From IMG/VR virus record IMGVR_UViG_2585428013_000006: 31,244 nt of DNA, one strand, 5' to 3'. The notes below the pieces were generated by a model. That model ran no database searches. It worked only from the letters and a program-made list of their open reading frames with translations, and was not told where the DNA came from. A program made the position numbers and the translations under genes. This document shows positions 20,230 to 27,873 of the stretch, one piece after another (positions within the stretch are counted from its first letter, which is position 1; each line of letters starts with the position of its first letter). Origin of the DNA: a virus (taxonomy: Duplodnaviria > Heunggongvirae > Uroviricota > Caudoviricetes).

Positions 20230-21279
20230 TTGAGCAGCAAAAAGAAATTCAGGGCGCCAACTGCTGCGCCAGCCAGCACGGCCAGCAACGCAGCCACCCC
20301 GCTGGAAAGCGTGGAATCTTTCAGCTTTGGCGACCCGATCGCAGTCAACGATCGAGCGTCTCTTATGGAGTGCCTCGAATGCCATAACAATGGCCGCTGG
20401 TATGAACCACCGATCAGCCCTTACGGGCTGGCGCGCATGTTCGACGTTGCCGCCTATCACCAGTCACCGCTGATATTTAAACGCAATGTTATCGCCAGTT
20501 GCTACATACCACACCCGCTATTGACCCGGCAGGAGTTCACCGCCTGGGTGCAGGATTATTTAATTTTCGGTAACTGTTACATGGAATGCCGCCGCAACCG
20601 ACTCGGCCAGCCGATTGAACTGCGGCACAGCCAGGCGAAATATACGCGGCGCGGCATAGACCCGGCTCAATTCTGGTTTGTTCCGCGCTACGTTGACGAT
20701 CACGCGTTCGAACCGGGCAGCGTCTGCCAGATCAAGAACCCCAGCCCGCACCAGGAGATCTACGGCGCGCCGGAATATCTGGCCGCGCTACAAAGCGCCA
20801 TGCTGAACGGTGAAGCAACGGTGTTCCGCCGCAACTACTACATTAACGGAAGTCATGCGGGTGTGATCGTCTACCTCACCGACCCGGTAGCGAATAATAA
20901 CGATGTGGAAAAGCTTAAGAAGTCGCTGAAAGATGCACGTGGCAACGGTGCTTTTAAAAACCTGTTTGTCTACGCGGCGGGCGGGAAAAAAGACGGCCTG
21001 CAAATTATGCCGTTCAGCCAGGTGGCGGCGAAGGATGAGTTTACCGGCATCAAAGACGCCACCCGAGACGACCTGTTAGCCGCGCACCGCGTACCGCCCG
21101 TTCTGATGGGGGTAATGCCGAATAACTCCGGTGGCTTCGGCGACGTAGAGAAAGCGGCGAAGGTTTTTTCCATCAACGAACTGGCCCCGATACAAGAAAG
21201 CCTGAAAGAGTTAAACGACTGGCTGGGGATCGACGTGGTGCGCTTCAACCCTTACGCACTGTTGCAGGCAGCAATCTGA
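20230..21279 (+). CDS. Q: Portal protein Q
   Basis: 349 aa; starts at TTG directly after the P stop, with GGAGGAG 8 nt upstream; portal-family resemblance. Confidence 0.85.
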   Translation: MSSKKKFRAPTAAPASTASNAATPLESVESFSFGDPIAVNDRASLMECLECHNNGRWYEPPISPYGLARMFDVAAYHQSPLIFKRNVIASCYIPHPLLTRQEFTAWVQDYLIFGNCYMECRRNRLGQPIELRHSQAKYTRRGIDPAQFWFVPRYVDDHAFEPGSVCQIKNPSPHQEIYGAPEYLAALQSAMLNGEATVFRRNYYINGSHAGVIVYLTDPVANNNDVEKLKKSLKDARGNGAFKNLFVYAAGGKKDGLQIMPFSQVAAKDEFTGIKDATRDDLLAAHRVPPVLMGVMPNNSGGFGDVEKAAKVFSINELAPIQESLKELNDWLGIDVVRFNPYALLQAAI

Positions 21280-21649: not shown

Positions 21650-21677
21650 AAGGGCTTTGTTAGCCCTTAATTTTTTA
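21650..21677. terminator. Bidirectional hairpin terminator ending the accessory operon
   Basis: AAGGGCT-TTGTT-AGCCCTT flanked by A-run and T-run. Confidence 0.65.
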
Positions 21678-22313
21678 CCTTCCCCACTCCCGATCAGGAA
21701 GTCGATCTTTGAAGGCAAGGTAATCGTAAAACTCACGAGTATGGGAAAAGATACATTCGCACATTGCAGCGCCAGCGTTTGAAAGAGCCAATTTCAACAT
21801 GCCGTCAGGTTTAGGATTGCTCACCAAATTTTCATAAACTTGAGCCTGATCTGTACCGTGGACACATAACAAAAGTGACGACTCAAAGGTAACAACTGCA
21901 TCCAGTAAACGCTGATGAATCACGGAAAGGGCCGGTTGGTTTGCAACAATTGCAGTCAAACAGCGGCGATCACCCGTCATGAAAATGGCTTCTGGGTTCT
22001 CTATGCACGAGGCAAGCAATAGCTGTTCGCCTACATCAATTCCGGGCACACTCCCCAAAAGCTCAATAAGCTGTGAGTCCTGAACTTCCGGGATATCCTG
22101 TACAGATTCAATGAAGGCTCCCACCTGCTCGTAAACAACCTGGCTACCACACTTCCTGATTGCTTTATCAGGATTTTTCGGCAGAAGCTGAAAACGAGCA
22201 GCAGGGTTAATGAAGATCTGTTCGGGGGGTTGATTAAAAACCACTGGCAGTTGTGATAACAGATTGCACTGGGCCAGCTTCAAAATGACATCATTGTCAG
22301 AAAGAACAATCAC
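21675..22313 (-). CDS. Hypothetical protein, possible PIN-like nuclease fold; second gene of the accessory pair
   Basis: 212 aa; GTG start after tandem TAA TAA; N-terminal IVLSDNDVI and later IFMTGDRR resemble PIN acidic motifs (weak, by eye); AT-richer than the phage core. Confidence 0.45.
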   Translation of the reverse strand: MIVLSDNDVILKLAQCNLLSQLPVVFNQPPEQIFINPAARFQLLPKNPDKAIRKCGSQVVYEQVGAFIESVQDIPEVQDSQLIELLGSVPGIDVGEQLLLASCIENPEAIFMTGDRRCLTAIVANQPALSVIHQRLLDAVVTFESSLLLCVHGTDQAQVYENLVSNPKPDGMLKLALSNAGAAMCECIFSHTREFYDYLAFKDRLPDREWGR

Positions 22314-22316
22314 TTA

Positions 22317-23315
22317 TTATTCCCCGATTAGATTTTCTAAAACCTTAAGATCATCTTCGTGGATATTTTCTAAATCCATCCCGCTTTTCATCATGGCCCT
22401 CACAAAATCCTGATCTGAGTCTTCACCAGCACAGAGTGCTTTAACAGCGTTAACAGCAGCACCCCAGCAGTTCTGCGCGAAACCATAATTTAAAGCGATG
22501 TGAGTCGGGTCAATGTGATTATCACTTCCAAACTTTTGAGCCGCGCGAGCCAAGCCAGGCCCATTCAACCTGCCAGCGGTAGGAACGATACGTAAAGACT
22601 TCTGCCCCGAAATGACCTGGAAAGCGAATTCGTTGGCTTCTTTCTCTACGTTGTCCGTCGAAGCATTCTCAATTTTTGCATCAATATGGCACTGCCCGTT
22701 TTCTGCGTTCAGATGCCCTCTGGCGATATGGCCTAACTCATGCGCGAGATCAAACAGCATATAGCCATATTTCTGAGGCTGAGTAAGAACAATCACCGGG
22801 CGCCCGTGACTCATTAGTGCCAGCCCGGCCATTTTTTTGGCAGCTTGAGGGAAGCATTTTAGATAAACAACAGGAATGCCAATCGAATGACAGTATGTTA
22901 CCAGGCTATCTAACGATACCCATGATTCCTTAGTAAGAATCTGGGTTCTTATCGCCAAAGGATCAAGCACTGCACTGGAATCGTAAGGGACTTTGAAATT
23001 AGACGCGACAATACCGGCCGCAGTATAGGCAACAGCAGTAGCGATATCTAAATCGTTCTCGGCTACATTTTGGCGATGTTTATATTTATGGTTTCCACCA
23101 AAATTAAAGCATACCCCTTCGCTACCATCTTTCAGGCTATCCGGGAGAATGCTAAACATACGCGCAAGGTGCAGGCACGCATACTGGCGCCCTGATGGGG
23201 TGTCAGCAAGCTTCTCATCCCACCAGTCAGGCAACAACCTGCGGATGTAAGAGAGATTAAACCCGGCCCGGCCGAATTTAGAATATATCTGACTCATCTG
23301 ATTATGGTTCGTCAT
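22317..23315 (-). CDS. ImmA/IrrE-family (M78-like) zinc metallopeptidase domain protein with unknown N-terminal region
   Basis: 332 aa; HELGH followed by EKEANEFA, the arrangement typical of ImmA/IrrE peptidases; AGGAGG SD; occupies the P2 old/tin position. Confidence 0.7.
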   Translation of the reverse strand: MTNHNQMSQIYSKFGRAGFNLSYIRRLLPDWWDEKLADTPSGRQYACLHLARMFSILPDSLKDGSEGVCFNFGGNHKYKHRQNVAENDLDIATAVAYTAAGIVASNFKVPYDSSAVLDPLAIRTQILTKESWVSLDSLVTYCHSIGIPVVYLKCFPQAAKKMAGLALMSHGRPVIVLTQPQKYGYMLFDLAHELGHIARGHLNAENGQCHIDAKIENASTDNVEKEANEFAFQVISGQKSLRIVPTAGRLNGPGLARAAQKFGSDNHIDPTHIALNYGFAQNCWGAAVNAVKALCAGEDSDQDFVRAMMKSGMDLENIHEDDLKVLENLIGE

Positions 23316-23473: not shown

Positions 23474-25828
23474 TTAGTTCCGCGAAAATGCTGCTTTCAT
23501 CCTGTTCACAAGATCACTTGTTTTTTGCTTCGCCGCCATCACCTGCGACGGTAGCTTATCCAGCCCGGACGCTGCGCGGTTGCGCGATACCAGCCGCCCG
23601 TCCTGCACGGTCATAACAAGATCGCCGCACGCCACTGACGCACCGGCCATCATCGATCTGACCATTCCAGCGCTGGCATCAATCCCACGTAGCGCCAGCA
23701 GTTCACTGATCTGCTGCTCTTTGACTGATAGCCCTGCTCCCTCTTCCCGTTCCGGTGGCCGCGTTTTCCGCTTGGCGCGTACATCGTCACTTAATCGCTG
23801 CGCCAGTTCCCGTTTTTCTTGCCGTGAAAGAGCATCAAAATTCACCGTCTCGCCCACTTCGTGATCGGCATGTTCAAGACCGTCTGCACTTGTCGCGGGA
23901 TCCCGCGTACAGTTATTGACAGAACTCCGAGGGGCGGCGTTGCCGCCTGAAAAACCAACGTCAACGGCCACACCGTCAACGCTCTGGCGCTTCGGCACGA
24001 TTTTGTATTGAGTGGTGCGGGTGAAGATCAAAGAGTCATTGCCCGTAATCGGGCAGTAAATACCGGTGATTCGCTGGACGTTATCGCCGTAGGCGTTGCC
24101 GTTCTCAGTGGTTTCATAATTCAGACGAATGCGCAGCTTATCGCGCTCAACCAATGGGCCACCCTGGGCTAATACGTAGTTATCCCATTCGCCACCGTTA
24201 GCGGCCTGCCGGGCGGTTTCCAGTTCAGGGTGTAGCACCAGTTCGCGATCGCCCAGGCGGCGAAGTTCGCGATATACCGTGACCGGCGCACCGCCGATCT
24301 GCTGAAACTGACGAATAGCCCAGCGCGATGCCCACGCGCTAACGCGGAGTGACATTTCTTTCAGGTCTTCCCCGGTTTCGTCGTCCTTCTCACCATCCAG
24401 CGCGAAGCCGTCGATATTCTTCGAAATGTATTTCGCTATGTAGCCGGTTGCGCTGCCGTGGGCATCGTCGATCGGCACAACCTGAAAGCGGTTTTCCTGC
24501 GCTCCCGGTTCGTTGCCGTCTTCTTTCAGGGCATATTTACGGAAGATTTCGCGCGCCTGCTTGACGCATTCCGGGCGCATAAAAAGAAGTAAATGCCAGT
24601 GTGGCGTTGCATCGTGGTGCGGTTCGACCACGCGGAAACCAAAGACGCGGATCCCTTTTCTCTTCCACGCTGCGCGGGTTCTCGCCCAGACTTTGCAAAG
24701 ATATTGCTGCGTCTCGCGCGGCGACGCGCCACAGTATTTATTATTGCGGCGCCCGTTATGCTGCATGGAGTGGTAACGGGAAGGTGCTGTTAGCGTGTAG
24801 AAGTCACCGGCCAGCCCTTCCAGCTTCGCCAAATCTTCAAATCCGCGCATTCTCGTCATGAGTTCGCGGCGACGGTTGGCCGGATTGGCAACACTACCGG
24901 CGACTTTATCGATCAGTGAAATGCGTTCGCCCGTGTCCTGGTCTTCCAGTTCCATAGCCTTAAGGTATTCACGGTTAGCCTTTTTCTGGGCCAGCCATTC
25001 CGTGAGGCACGGGGCGCTACTGTATGGGGAAGATTTTTTCTGGACGTATCCCGCTGCGATCATCAAATGCTCACGCCACCTGGCATGGATACGGCGCAGG
25101 CGGTTTAACCACCACTGCGGTGACTCAAGGCGAAGAACCGCGCGTAACGCGTCCTCCGCTTCCAGTTCTTCATTGCAATACGCCGTCCAGCCGGGGATCG
25201 GCGTTTTCAGATGCACCGCCAGCGACGCAATACGGCCATAGCCCGAAAGCGCCGCGAACTCAGGATCTCCGGTGCGTGCCAACTGGTGATCGGACTCGCG
25301 TATAAACTCGCTCGTAAAGATATCGGCAAGCGTATAAGCCAGTCTTTTTAACTCTTTCTTCCCTGCCCAGAGCATACGGAAAAGCTGATCGCGGATTGGT
25401 AGCAGAATGCCGGGCATCACAGTGTCAGGCTGGTAAACACTGTTCACGCTATCAATACGCGTTAATACGTGGCGCTCAAAGGTATTAACCAGCCAGTGAT
25501 CTGCCGCTTTACGGTCTTTCGCGTCCAGTGCATCCAGCTTCGCGGCAAAGTGGCGGCGGATATACTGCGGAAGGGAAGCCAGACGGCGACGCAGCAGCTT
25601 GCTGCGCTCCGGCTTTTCGTCCTCCGCTACCAGTTCACTGAACGCAATATGCTTGCGGGTGCCGTCCGGCGTGAGATAGTCGAAACCATCCAGCCCCGGC
25701 GCTACATCAACGCCAATCGGCTGGTATGGTTTGTTCCCGCCATAAGCGTAAGGGATAGCATTATCAGTGCTACCCGGATACGATGGAGGTGGAGAAGGGG
25801 CGCGACGGCCACGGGTTGCCGTGGTCAT
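23474..25828 (-). CDS. A: Replication initiation endonuclease A (rolling-circle)
   Basis: 784 aa; P2 gpA-like size and position; ATGA overlap with the upstream methylase gene. Confidence 0.9.
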   Translation of the reverse strand: MTTATRGRRAPSPPPSYPGSTDNAIPYAYGGNKPYQPIGVDVAPGLDGFDYLTPDGTRKHIAFSELVAEDEKPERSKLLRRRLASLPQYIRRHFAAKLDALDAKDRKAADHWLVNTFERHVLTRIDSVNSVYQPDTVMPGILLPIRDQLFRMLWAGKKELKRLAYTLADIFTSEFIRESDHQLARTGDPEFAALSGYGRIASLAVHLKTPIPGWTAYCNEELEAEDALRAVLRLESPQWWLNRLRRIHARWREHLMIAAGYVQKKSSPYSSAPCLTEWLAQKKANREYLKAMELEDQDTGERISLIDKVAGSVANPANRRRELMTRMRGFEDLAKLEGLAGDFYTLTAPSRYHSMQHNGRRNNKYCGASPRETQQYLCKVWARTRAAWKRKGIRVFGFRVVEPHHDATPHWHLLLFMRPECVKQAREIFRKYALKEDGNEPGAQENRFQVVPIDDAHGSATGYIAKYISKNIDGFALDGEKDDETGEDLKEMSLRVSAWASRWAIRQFQQIGGAPVTVYRELRRLGDRELVLHPELETARQAANGGEWDNYVLAQGGPLVERDKLRIRLNYETTENGNAYGDNVQRITGIYCPITGNDSLIFTRTTQYKIVPKRQSVDGVAVDVGFSGGNAAPRSSVNNCTRDPATSADGLEHADHEVGETVNFDALSRQEKRELAQRLSDDVRAKRKTRPPEREEGAGLSVKEQQISELLALRGIDASAGMVRSMMAGASVACGDLVMTVQDGRLVSRNRAASGLDKLPSQVMAAKQKTSDLVNRMKAAFSRN

Positions 25829-26739
25829 TGCGCGATCTCCATGTAGGCTTTTAAGAAAGTAGCGGCTGCATAGATATTTACGGCGTTTCCGCTGGCGCGT
25901 AGTTTTCCCACTCTGGAGGGAACCCCATCAACCAGAGGCTTAAGGCCGGGTTTAACTGGCCTCCACTTTCCATCCCGGCAGAAAAGCCAGTCAGCAGATC
26001 CCCAGAATCCGTTAACCGGGCCGGGCCTGCTATCTGCGCTGTCACATCCAGCGTATCCGTTGACAGCTTCCCGTGCCGCATCCTTCCCCCCTGATACCCG
26101 CCCTTTCCATCCCTCGCCGCAGGGGTGGGCCAGCCCGCAAGACAAGCAAAGTCCTGTAAGTTCGACTGCCGACCAGCCAGCTTCCTGGCGATCACCTTCT
26201 CGGCATCCTGATAAGCGTTCTTCGTATTGCTCGCGGTTGGAGTCGGCCAGCCAGTAAGTACGCTCCCGGATGTGCGGCGCACCGACGCCCGCAGACGGAA
26301 ACGCCGACGCCCCGAAGGCATAGCCCAAACTTTCCATGTCAGTTTGTACAAGGTCGATCCAGACTTCTGCATCTTTGCTTGAAGACTGTTCGCCAAATAT
26401 AACGACAGGGCGTTGCTGGCCTGCAAGCCAATGAACGGCGGGCCATAGGTGCCGCTCATCATCAAATTGTTTTCCTTCGCCTGCCTGGCTGAAAGGTTGG
26501 CATGGGCAACTTGCTGTCCATACTGGGCGGTCGTCCGGCCATCCTGCAACGCGCAAAGCACGGGGCCAGCCTCCAAAACCTGCAAACAGGTGGATTTGAG
26601 AGAATCCTTTAATGTCATTTGGGGTTACATCCTCAACGGAACGGGTATCAACAACGCCGGAAGCGATAAGCCCGGCATCAATGAGGTTGCGCAGGTATTG
26701 CGCGGCAAAGGGATCGATTTCGTTGTAGTAGGCGGTCAC
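25825..26739 (-). CDS. DNA (cytosine-5) methyltransferase, orphan
   Basis: Motif I FAGFGG, motif IV PCQPFS, RER, C-terminal GNAV; GTG start with GGAGGGG SD; no restriction partner seen. Confidence 0.8.
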
Positions 26740-26930
26740 TGCTGCCCCTCCGCTTTGCGGTATTTCGTGATAAGCGGATCTACAATTCCGTCGAGAGTGG
26801 CCTTTATCGCCCGCGCCTCTTCCTGCCCATTCATCACGCCCACGTGCGTGGCTAACGCCAACGCTATCAACTTGATTTCGTTCAGTGCGTGCAGCGCGCC
26901 TTGATTAAATTCATGTGAGTTAGAAGGCAT
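26736..26930 (-). CDS. Hypothetical small protein
   Basis: 64 aa from ATG 26930 (GGAG RBS), packed between the Dam and C5-methylase genes. Confidence 0.4.
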   Translation of the reverse strand: MPSNSHEFNQGALHALNEIKLIALALATHVGVMNGQEEARAIKATLDGIVDPLITKYRKAEGQQ

Positions 26931-27873
26931 CGGCGTGATCTCCAAAGTCGGCGGAATAGCCAGCGCATGGGCCGCAGTCTGGGCAATAGCCACCACCATG
27001 ACGCCCGCAGCAGTCGCAGACAGGCAGCACGCCGATCACTTCTTTGGCCTTCTGGCGGTTTTCTTTGTCGGTGCTGACGGAACGTTGCACGCTGATTTCG
27101 TGCATCTTGAAGGGCTGATAAATCGCGCGGGTGGCTTCGGTGTCGCTGTTGGAAATGACGACCTTCACGCCATGCTTACGGTTAACTTCCAGCAGTGCCT
27201 GGACTAACTGGCGGTGGTTGTCTTCCGTGAATGGTTCGGTGTGGTATTGGGTAAAATCGGCTGTTTTGCTTTCAGGCAGGTAAGGCGGATCGCAGTAAAC
27301 GAGAACATCGCCACCCGTGACGACCTGTAGAGAACGCTGGAACGGCGCGCAAAGAAATATTGCCTTTGTATCGTTGGCCTTTTCGGCAAAGAGGCGGATT
27401 TCATTTTCAGGAAAGTAGACGCTCTTATACTTGCCAAACGGCACGTTAAAGCCGCTCTTCCGGCTGTATCGGCATAAGCCGTTATAACCGTGACGATTCA
27501 GATACAGGAATTGAGCAGCGCGCATAATGCACGCCATTTCAGCGCCATAACGCAACCCACCGCTTTTTACCGTACCCACCTGCTTATTGAACGCGGCGCG
27601 GACTTCGTTGTACCCCTGCGGGCTGTTCTTGCTGTTGAACAGTTCGCGGGCCGCATCGATCACTAAGTCCGGGTAACGGGTGACTTCCCGATACAGGTTA
27701 ATAAGATCCGGGTTGATATCAGCCAGCACATAGCGGCGGTACTCAGTCGCCAGAAATACCGATGCGCCACCTACGAACGGTTCGATCAGGCAGTCGGCTG
27801 TAGGAAGGTGCGGCAGCAGGTCAGGAAGGACACGGGTTTTACCCCCTGCCCATTTGATGAACGGGCGGATCAT
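26920..27873 (-). CDS. dam: Dam-family DNA adenine (N6) methyltransferase with Cys-rich C-terminal extension
   Basis: KWAGGK, EPF.GG.SVFL, DPPY; colinear with E. coli Dam; extra C-terminal tail CDCCGRHGGGYCPDCGPC. Confidence 0.9.
   Translation of the reverse strand: MIRPFIKWAGGKTRVLPDLLPHLPTADCLIEPFVGGASVFLATEYRRYVLADINPDLINLYREVTRYPDLVIDAARELFNSKNSPQGYNEVRAAFNKQVGTVKSGGLRYGAEMACIMRAAQFLYLNRHGYNGLCRYSRKSGFNVPFGKYKSVYFPENEIRLFAEKANDTKAIFLCAPFQRSLQVVTGGDVLVYCDPPYLPESKTADFTQYHTEPFTEDNHRQLVQALLEVNRKHGVKVVISNSDTEATRAIYQPFKMHEISVQRSVSTDKENRQKAKEVIGVLPVCDCCGRHGGGYCPDCGPCAGYSADFGDHADAF

Follow-up and report, generated by a model that had tools for sequence, protein, structure and literature searches.

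A +1 reading frame nested in an orphan phage C5-cytosine methyltransferase gene: dual coding and a probable second enzyme subunit

Does the C5-cytosine methyltransferase gene of the virus in IMG/VR record IMGVR_UViG_2585428013_000006 encode a complete enzyme, or only a part of one? The gene occupies positions 25825..26739 of this stretch of 31,244 nucleotides, which at its full length we call the window, and like every feature of the locus described below it lies on the (-) strand. It starts with GTG, ends with TGA and encodes 304 amino acids in a reading frame that we refer to as frame A, or alpha. A preliminary description had assigned it to an orphan C5-cytosine methyltransferase carrying the motifs FAGFGG, PCQ and GNAV; these catalytic motifs are intact, and frame A is a genuine, already annotated methylase gene. 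The protein is, however, not a self-contained enzyme, since residues 166-240 are unconstrained and predicted to be disordered, and the selection at these positions acts on a second open reading frame (ORF) of 246 amino acids that had gone unnoticed. This nested ORF, frame B or beta, runs in the +1 frame wholly inside frame A (25878..26618 (-)), from an ATG to a TAA situated within the frame A codons for GNAV. That the locus is genuinely dual coding we regard as practically certain; that it specifies a two-polypeptide C5-cytosine DNA methyltransferase, composed of a catalytic alpha and the nested beta, is a probable reading that draws on sequence patterns and on analogy with a characterised enzyme.

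Alpha shares the catalytic large-domain fold of M.HhaI and M.HaeIII (PF00145) and of E. coli Dcm, together with motifs I, IV, VI, VIII and X. The first four of these have aligned counterparts in M.HhaI: motif I, which binds S-adenosylmethionine (AdoMet), reads FAGFGG (residues 52-57, 26569..26586 (-); F52, A53 and G54 invariant) against FAGLGG; motif IV reads PCQ in both and includes the catalytic Cys80 (residues 79-81, 26497..26505 (-); P79, C80 and Q81 invariant); motif VI reads GEQ (residues 116-118, 26386..26394 (-); E117 invariant) and is the equivalent of ENV; and motif VIII reads RER in both (residues 158-160, 26260..26268 (-); R158 and R160 invariant). Motif X, GNAV (residues 284-287, 25879..25890 (-); G284 and N285 invariant), begins a C-terminal helix with a predicted local distance difference test (pLDDT) score of 68-89, and was assigned by pattern and conservation, not by profile alignment.

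The similarity to conventional methylases ends beyond motif VIII. Frame A clears the Pfam DNA_methylase (PF00145) cut-off of 22 with a score of 42.8 bits, though over residues 75-172 only; with the NCBIfam dcm model TIGR00675 it reaches 21, where the cut-off is 100; and hhalign pairs it with residues 5-171 of a hand-entered M.HhaI sequence, comprising motifs I-VIII, at 98% probability. In an AlphaFold2 model of frame A, built with 30 homologues, residues 1-171 form a confident Rossmann-type domain and residues from about 274 to 304 a C-terminal helix that is likewise confident, while residues 172-251 fall below a pLDDT of 30 and residues 166-240 lie at 24-27, which is predicted disorder. Foldseek accordingly matches the model to M.HhaI, M.HaeIII and DNMT2 over only about 190 columns of the 304 residues. 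Given the lack of constraint at residues 166-240, the low pLDDT, the partial Pfam match and the TIGR00675 score, we find no folded small domain, that is a target-recognition domain (TRD) with motif IX, within the alpha chain, unlike in M.HhaI, M.HaeIII and Dcm. On the AlphaFold2, Foldseek and hhalign results, alpha consists of the large catalytic domain and motif X with a spacer in place of the small domain, and is thus only the catalytic part of a methylase. The top Foldseek match of the alpha model is a DNA cytosine C5-carboxymethyltransferase (8yf3; E = 6.2e-07), with M.HhaI just behind (7.0e-07); a predicted fold cannot reveal which group is transferred, and a modification other than methyl is possible.

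The preliminary description and the Prokaryotic Genome Annotation Pipeline (PGAP) treat the gene as a conventional, single-chain orphan methylase of the Dcm type; frame A would then be the whole enzyme and frame B a non-functional shadow ORF. It is so annotated in RefSeq and GenBank, where 'DNA cytosine methyltransferase' is the label of the same gene in E. coli 81009, at 98% nucleotide identity, and also in P2-like phages, among them Salmonella phage SI7 at 78%; at least 8000 database proteins match frame A, which is open from end to end with motifs I, IV, VI, VIII and X, and its residues 241-285 are under selection. Against this view stands the expected TRD, frame A residues 166-240, which is neither constrained nor predicted to fold. 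A further objection comes from frame B itself, which across distant phages is selected as coding sequence, stays open, contains conserved repeats and has a Shine-Dalgarno sequence and ATG of its own, and whose products form 15,296 clusters at 50% identity. We therefore consider the single-chain view very unlikely.

The case for frame B depends on comparison with relatives. A set of 88 loci was assembled first and then extended by eight more distant phages to 96. In 88 of the first 88 loci, one frame encodes both the catalytic N-terminus and the last 60 residues of alpha, and the beta sequence is in the +1 frame. The same nested layout recurs in the phages N15 (gene 58), K1H, Rhodobacter RcBigEagle, Klebsiella S9a, cyanophage Cr-LKS3, Salmonella W5 and a Lacticaseibacillus phage. 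SI7 and an E. coli prophage of 85% identity both have an open beta frame, and the mid-gene protein is better conserved in frame B than in frame A. Searches by tblastn with beta retrieved 219 phage records with identities down to about 31%, and beta-type proteins number 5893 when clustered at 90%; all of them are unnamed or 'hypothetical' and begin near their own residue 1. No in-frame fusion of beta-type sequence to a catalytic domain occurs among the 96 loci, nor among the 150 best representatives, all of which start at about profile residue 1-55.

Selection was measured among 51 lineages of less than 85% nucleotide identity, as identity at 4-fold degenerate third positions, and divides the gene into five zones. 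In the first (frame A codons 1-75) only frame A is coding, and its 4-fold identity is 0.34-0.35. The second, a first dual-coding zone (26245..26514 (-); frame A codons 76-165 and about residues 36-125 of B), is under purifying selection in both frames, and the frame A value rises to 0.54-0.75. The third zone (26020..26244 (-)) codes for beta only: frame A residues 166-240 are unconserved, with an amino-acid identity of 0.21, predicted to be disordered and yet free of stops; the most variable codon position is position 1 of frame A, which is position 3 of frame B, and the GWPTP modules of beta reside here. In the fourth, a second dual-coding zone (25885..26019 (-); frame A codons 241-285), 4-fold identity reaches 0.83-0.85 in frame A and 0.72-0.74 in frame B, compared to a frame B baseline of about 0.40. 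The fifth zone (frame A codons 286-304) is again coding in frame A only, at 0.38. Seen from frame B, the baseline of 0.39-0.42 is found only at B residues 126-200, and values of 0.67-0.84 prevail elsewhere.

The openness of the two frames is equally informative. The +1 frame stays open for a mean of 296 codons, compared to 140 in shuffles of synonymous codons, and of 15,300 shuffles only 130 are open for as long as the real sequence. Conversely, the frame A linker contains no stop in the beta-only zone of any of the 51 lineages, where resampling of codons synonymous in frame B predicts 3.0; since the sequence of this linker is free to vary, its lack of stops indicates that frame A must be read through there. 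A Shine-Dalgarno sequence and ATG in frame B precede the conserved part of beta in 46 of the 51 lineages, whereas synonymous-codon shuffles yield a mean of 9.1 and a maximum of 15. Taken together, these sequence-based results support two separately initiated proteins and argue against a shadow ORF, a pseudogene and a programmed frameshift. The idea of a pseudogene in decay, or of a sequencing artefact behind the shifted frame, has nothing more specific in its favour than the unusual frame structure, and we give it next to no credence: isolates and metagenomes together furnish 96 independent loci with the same structure, the catalytic motifs are invariant and both frames are under purifying selection.

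Programmed frameshifting merits closer consideration. In this scenario a +1 shift after motif VIII, possibly followed by a -1 shift before motif X, would join segments of A, B and A into one canonical chain, and the order of the parts, with motifs I-VIII in A, a variable region and a motif-IX-like end in B, and motif X in A, does resemble that of a canonical C5 methylase. The junction, however, contains no conserved nucleotide motif or slippery site (identity over codons 166-180 is 0.33, 0.47 and 0.50 at the three codon positions); frame B is conserved and open for about 90 codons upstream of the junction and possesses its own Shine-Dalgarno sequence and ATG; and frame A is kept free of stops through the middle of the gene, which frameshifting does not require. 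Moreover, the codons for GFPPEW in frame B and for PSRVG in frame A are the same bases, and a shift from B to A therefore cannot include both. On account of the unconserved junction, the upstream-open frame B and the stop-free frame A, we reject the model and rate its probability as very small.

Where does translation of beta begin? The probable initiation region (26616..26634 (-)) consists of GAGG at 26631-26634, the beta-frame start-stop pair ATGTAA at 26625-26630 directly after it, and the beta ATG at 26616-26618, to which the start-stop pair is 6 nucleotides ahead. A second candidate start is a GTG at about 26559-26561 that is preceded by GGAGG, and the conserved part of beta commences near residue 40 (about 26501). 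The ATGTAA arrangement is also present in relatives in which the +1 frame opens 115 nucleotides into the gene (26 of 87 loci), and it may modulate the initiation of beta. In many relatives, the Shine-Dalgarno sequence is made of the alpha codons GAA AGG AGT. In a few relatives, including the IMG/VR loci L031, L035 and L037, the +1 frame opens later, 193 nucleotides after the gene begins, and in L031 and L037 the conserved beta region is not preceded by any start codon.

Beta is a basic protein with an isoelectric point of 9.8, compared to 5.3 for alpha. Its variable region bears two WPTP modules, GWPTPTASN (26238..26249 (-)) and GWPTPAARD (26121..26132 (-)), which in relatives number two to five, follow the pattern GWPTPxAxD, are spaced about 31-39 residues apart and are inserted or deleted as whole units; a WPTP module is absent in 3 of the 51 lineages. 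In these and in the late-opening relatives, beta may have been shortened or have diverged. The C-terminal end of beta (25908..25958 (-)) conforms to the consensus GQLNPxxSxWLMGxPPEW, with L222, P224, W229, L230, P234 and W237 invariant, and resembles motif IX. PHROGs contains beta-type families that are labelled 'DNA methyltransferase'.

We propose the following arrangement. Alpha would provide the large domain for AdoMet binding and catalysis, with motifs I-VIII at its N-terminus and motif X at its C-terminus, the two parts being joined by a linker of about 75 residues that is free to vary and constrained only to stay open. Beta, of up to 246 residues, would be initiated independently at the internal Shine-Dalgarno sequence and ATG inside the alpha gene, shifted by +1, and would dock onto alpha to yield the active enzyme, in which it would act as the small domain that reads the major groove. 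Beta thus probably supplies the subunit for DNA and target recognition; its variable WPTP modules would constitute the target-recognition region, and its motif-IX-like end would organise it. The pair is translationally coupled to both of its neighbours in the operon, between Dam and the replication gene A. Its likely task would be to methylate the DNA of the phage, and of the lysogen, probably as self-protection against host restriction, or else for epigenetic control, and the preliminary description's suggestion of an anti-restriction or epigenetic role remains a reasonable one.

Precedent for such an enzyme exists. M.EcoHK31I of E. coli HK31, which recognises YGGCCR, is a C5 methyltransferase made of two polypeptides (Lee, Kam and Shaw 1995, as cited in PMC2836561 and PMC3404938). 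These two sources state that its beta is encoded inside the alpha gene in another frame, that alpha contains motifs I-VIII as well as X, with motif IX in beta, that both are required, and that internal Met codons of the beta frame can act as starts. The phage locus agrees with this description in that the beta ORF lies wholly within the alpha gene in a different frame and alpha carries motifs I-VIII plus X, and internal Met codons of its beta frame would likewise act as starts; the motif-IX-type sequence on beta, whose alignment has an hhalign E of 0.27, is a candidate for a further likeness. It differs from M.EcoHK31I in being an orphan in the early operon of a P2-like prophage instead of one half of a restriction-modification pair, in having a larger beta, and in that the variable region is selected only in beta while the 'TRD' segment of alpha is an unconstrained linker; the predicted TRD of M.EcoHK31I is located on alpha. 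By analogy, both chains of the phage enzyme would be required for activity, and the best reading of the locus is as a representative of the M.EcoHK31I-like layout, a known but obscure kind. M.AquI (CYCGRG) is another naturally split C5 methyltransferase, whose two polypeptides must assemble (PMC3404938). Its small subunit comprises the distal variable region with motifs IX and X and is encoded after the large one, whereas here motif X belongs to the large subunit, within whose gene the small one is nested. A split of the M.AquI type was rejected for this locus, as frame A is the one that encodes motif X (GNAV), and the stop of frame B falls within this motif.

Several observations weigh against the two-subunit assignment. 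The translation of beta and its binding to alpha are both predictions. No methylase small domain matches the sequence of beta at a significant level: in a comparison with a hand-entered M.HhaI sequence, hhalign aligned just the motif-IX-like end, to M.HhaI 273-292 (KLHPRECARVMGYPDSYKVH), with a non-significant E of 0.27; the beta profile found no match among sequences of the PDB at E <= 10; and Pfam and NCBIfam scans of beta returned nothing meaningful or consistent, PF00145 being matched by one of 30 members only (E = 0.0066). AlphaFold2 predicted no confident fold for beta by itself, the mean pLDDT being 34. Alpha, in turn, retains a conserved segment of its own, residues 241-285, which is loosely motif-IX-like and because of which alpha alone might be active. 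The published description of M.EcoHK31I (PMC2836561, PMC3404938) places its predicted TRD on alpha, not on beta. Finally, the comparison loci were gathered by similarity to beta, so that relatives that carry alpha without beta would be missing from the sample.

These points lend some weight to the alternative that frame B is a real overprinted protein with a different occupation, be it DNA binding, regulation or anti-defence, and that alpha acts alone or with a host factor. Dual coding is solid, but the link from beta to methylase small domains is a short, non-significant motif match, and the AlphaFold2 model of beta alone is uninformative. On the other side of the balance, alpha is without a conserved and folded domain for recognition, all loci examined have inherited beta together with alpha, the conserved C-terminus of beta fits the motif IX pattern at the correct end of the protein, and M.EcoHK31I, the one studied enzyme of this layout, needs its beta for methylation according to PMC2836561. 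We consider this alternative unlikely, though worth keeping in mind, and retain the two-subunit methyltransferase as the probable identity of the locus.

The annotation of the gene family is inconsistent. N15 gene 58, the genes of Salmonella phages SI7 and SEN4 and ORF28/ORF29 of Escherichia phage K1H all belong to the same family and have the same nested +1 layout, and most public records annotate alpha alone. Both frames are annotated in K1H (L089 of our set), and beta alone in Cylindrospermopsis phage Cr-LKS3 (L092), as 'methyltransferase', and in Salmonella phage W5 (L095), as 'putative Mte8-like protein'; a lookup of the product name 'Mte8-like' yielded nothing, and in the literature that we searched the overlap is not described for phage methylases. 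One further relative, L064 (IMGVR_UViG_3300037041_000717), contains an insertion of about 125 codons at about 1125-1500, between motif VI and motif VII/VIII, that is ordinary protein-like in frame B and of low complexity in frame A, with both frames open. An identification of this insertion as an HNH-like domain was discarded as a guess that had no Pfam match.

The genomic context is that of an orphan methylase in the early operon of a P2-like prophage. As the preliminary description had noted, frame A starts at GTG, is translationally coupled to replication gene A and overlaps the ATG of that gene with its stop (CAATGACC, giving ATGA). The overlap of the TGA is 4 nucleotides, and homologues have ATG in place of the GTG; the GTG likewise overlaps the stop of an upstream ORF of 87 amino acids by 4 nucleotides (GTGA). 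Downstream follow the 784-residue replication gene A (Phage_GPA) and then an M78 peptidase gene, and a replication endonuclease gene is always immediately downstream of the methylase gene in the P2-like relatives that bear the cytosine methyltransferase label. Upstream of the 87-residue ORF is the Dam gene at 26920..27873, which was confirmed as such and belongs to the same early operon. The reported lack of an adjacent restriction endonuclease gene also held: no restriction endonuclease family turned up among the neighbouring genes, and a PADLOC scan had no restriction match. Dam (26920-27873 (-), 317 amino acids) has a Cys-rich tail of about 50 residues past its Pfam domain (VCDCCGRHGGGYCPDCGPCAG...), and its 3' end overlaps the 87-residue ORF (26736-26999 (-)), which has no family match in Pfam, NCBIfam, PHROGs or PADLOC, by 80 nucleotides. 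E. coli 81009 has a DUF4406 gene in this interval instead, and its Dam carries a pseudogene annotation. A two-gene cassette (window positions 21675-23315 (-)) is situated between the portal gene (20230-21279) and gene A, consisting of a 212-residue ORF with no family match and a 332-residue M78 peptidase of the ImmA/IrrE type, for which PADLOC reports weak matches to PD-Lambda-2_B, RmrA and CapP; the cassette may occupy a variable spot of this P2-like prophage as cargo for anti-phage defence or as a sensor.

What would a nested recognition subunit imply? A comparison of the target-recognition region with REBASE, as had been suggested for this gene, would examine the wrong frame, because selection in that region acts on the nested +1 ORF. 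More generally, if the two-subunit reading is true, target prediction, be it by REBASE-style TRD comparison or by methylome matching, fails from the annotated frame alone, since it is the other frame that encodes the variable recognition region. Annotation pipelines record alpha or beta and rarely both (PGAP alpha only, with beta 'hypothetical' in thousands of records), and a subunit is thereby routinely lost. The locus is a well-replicated natural case of overlapping-gene evolution, with clean single- and dual-coding zones and a linker selected only for openness. A natural split between catalysis and recognition, with modular repeats on the recognition side, would be of interest for engineered targeted methylases, which was a motive for the studies of M.EcoHK31I. 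With a confidence only somewhat better than even, we suggest that a very large and old family of phage cytosine methylases, which has over 15,000 beta clusters at 50% identity and extends across phages of proteobacteria, cyanobacteria and Lactobacillus, is obligately two-subunit: more than 200 codons of the +1 frame inside the catalytic gene would encode the recognition subunit, its repeats would set or multiply specificity, and the alpha linker would be constrained only to be stop-free. If so, this overlap would be among the longest and most widely conserved same-strand overlaps in prokaryotic viruses, and one of which standard annotation systematically misses half.

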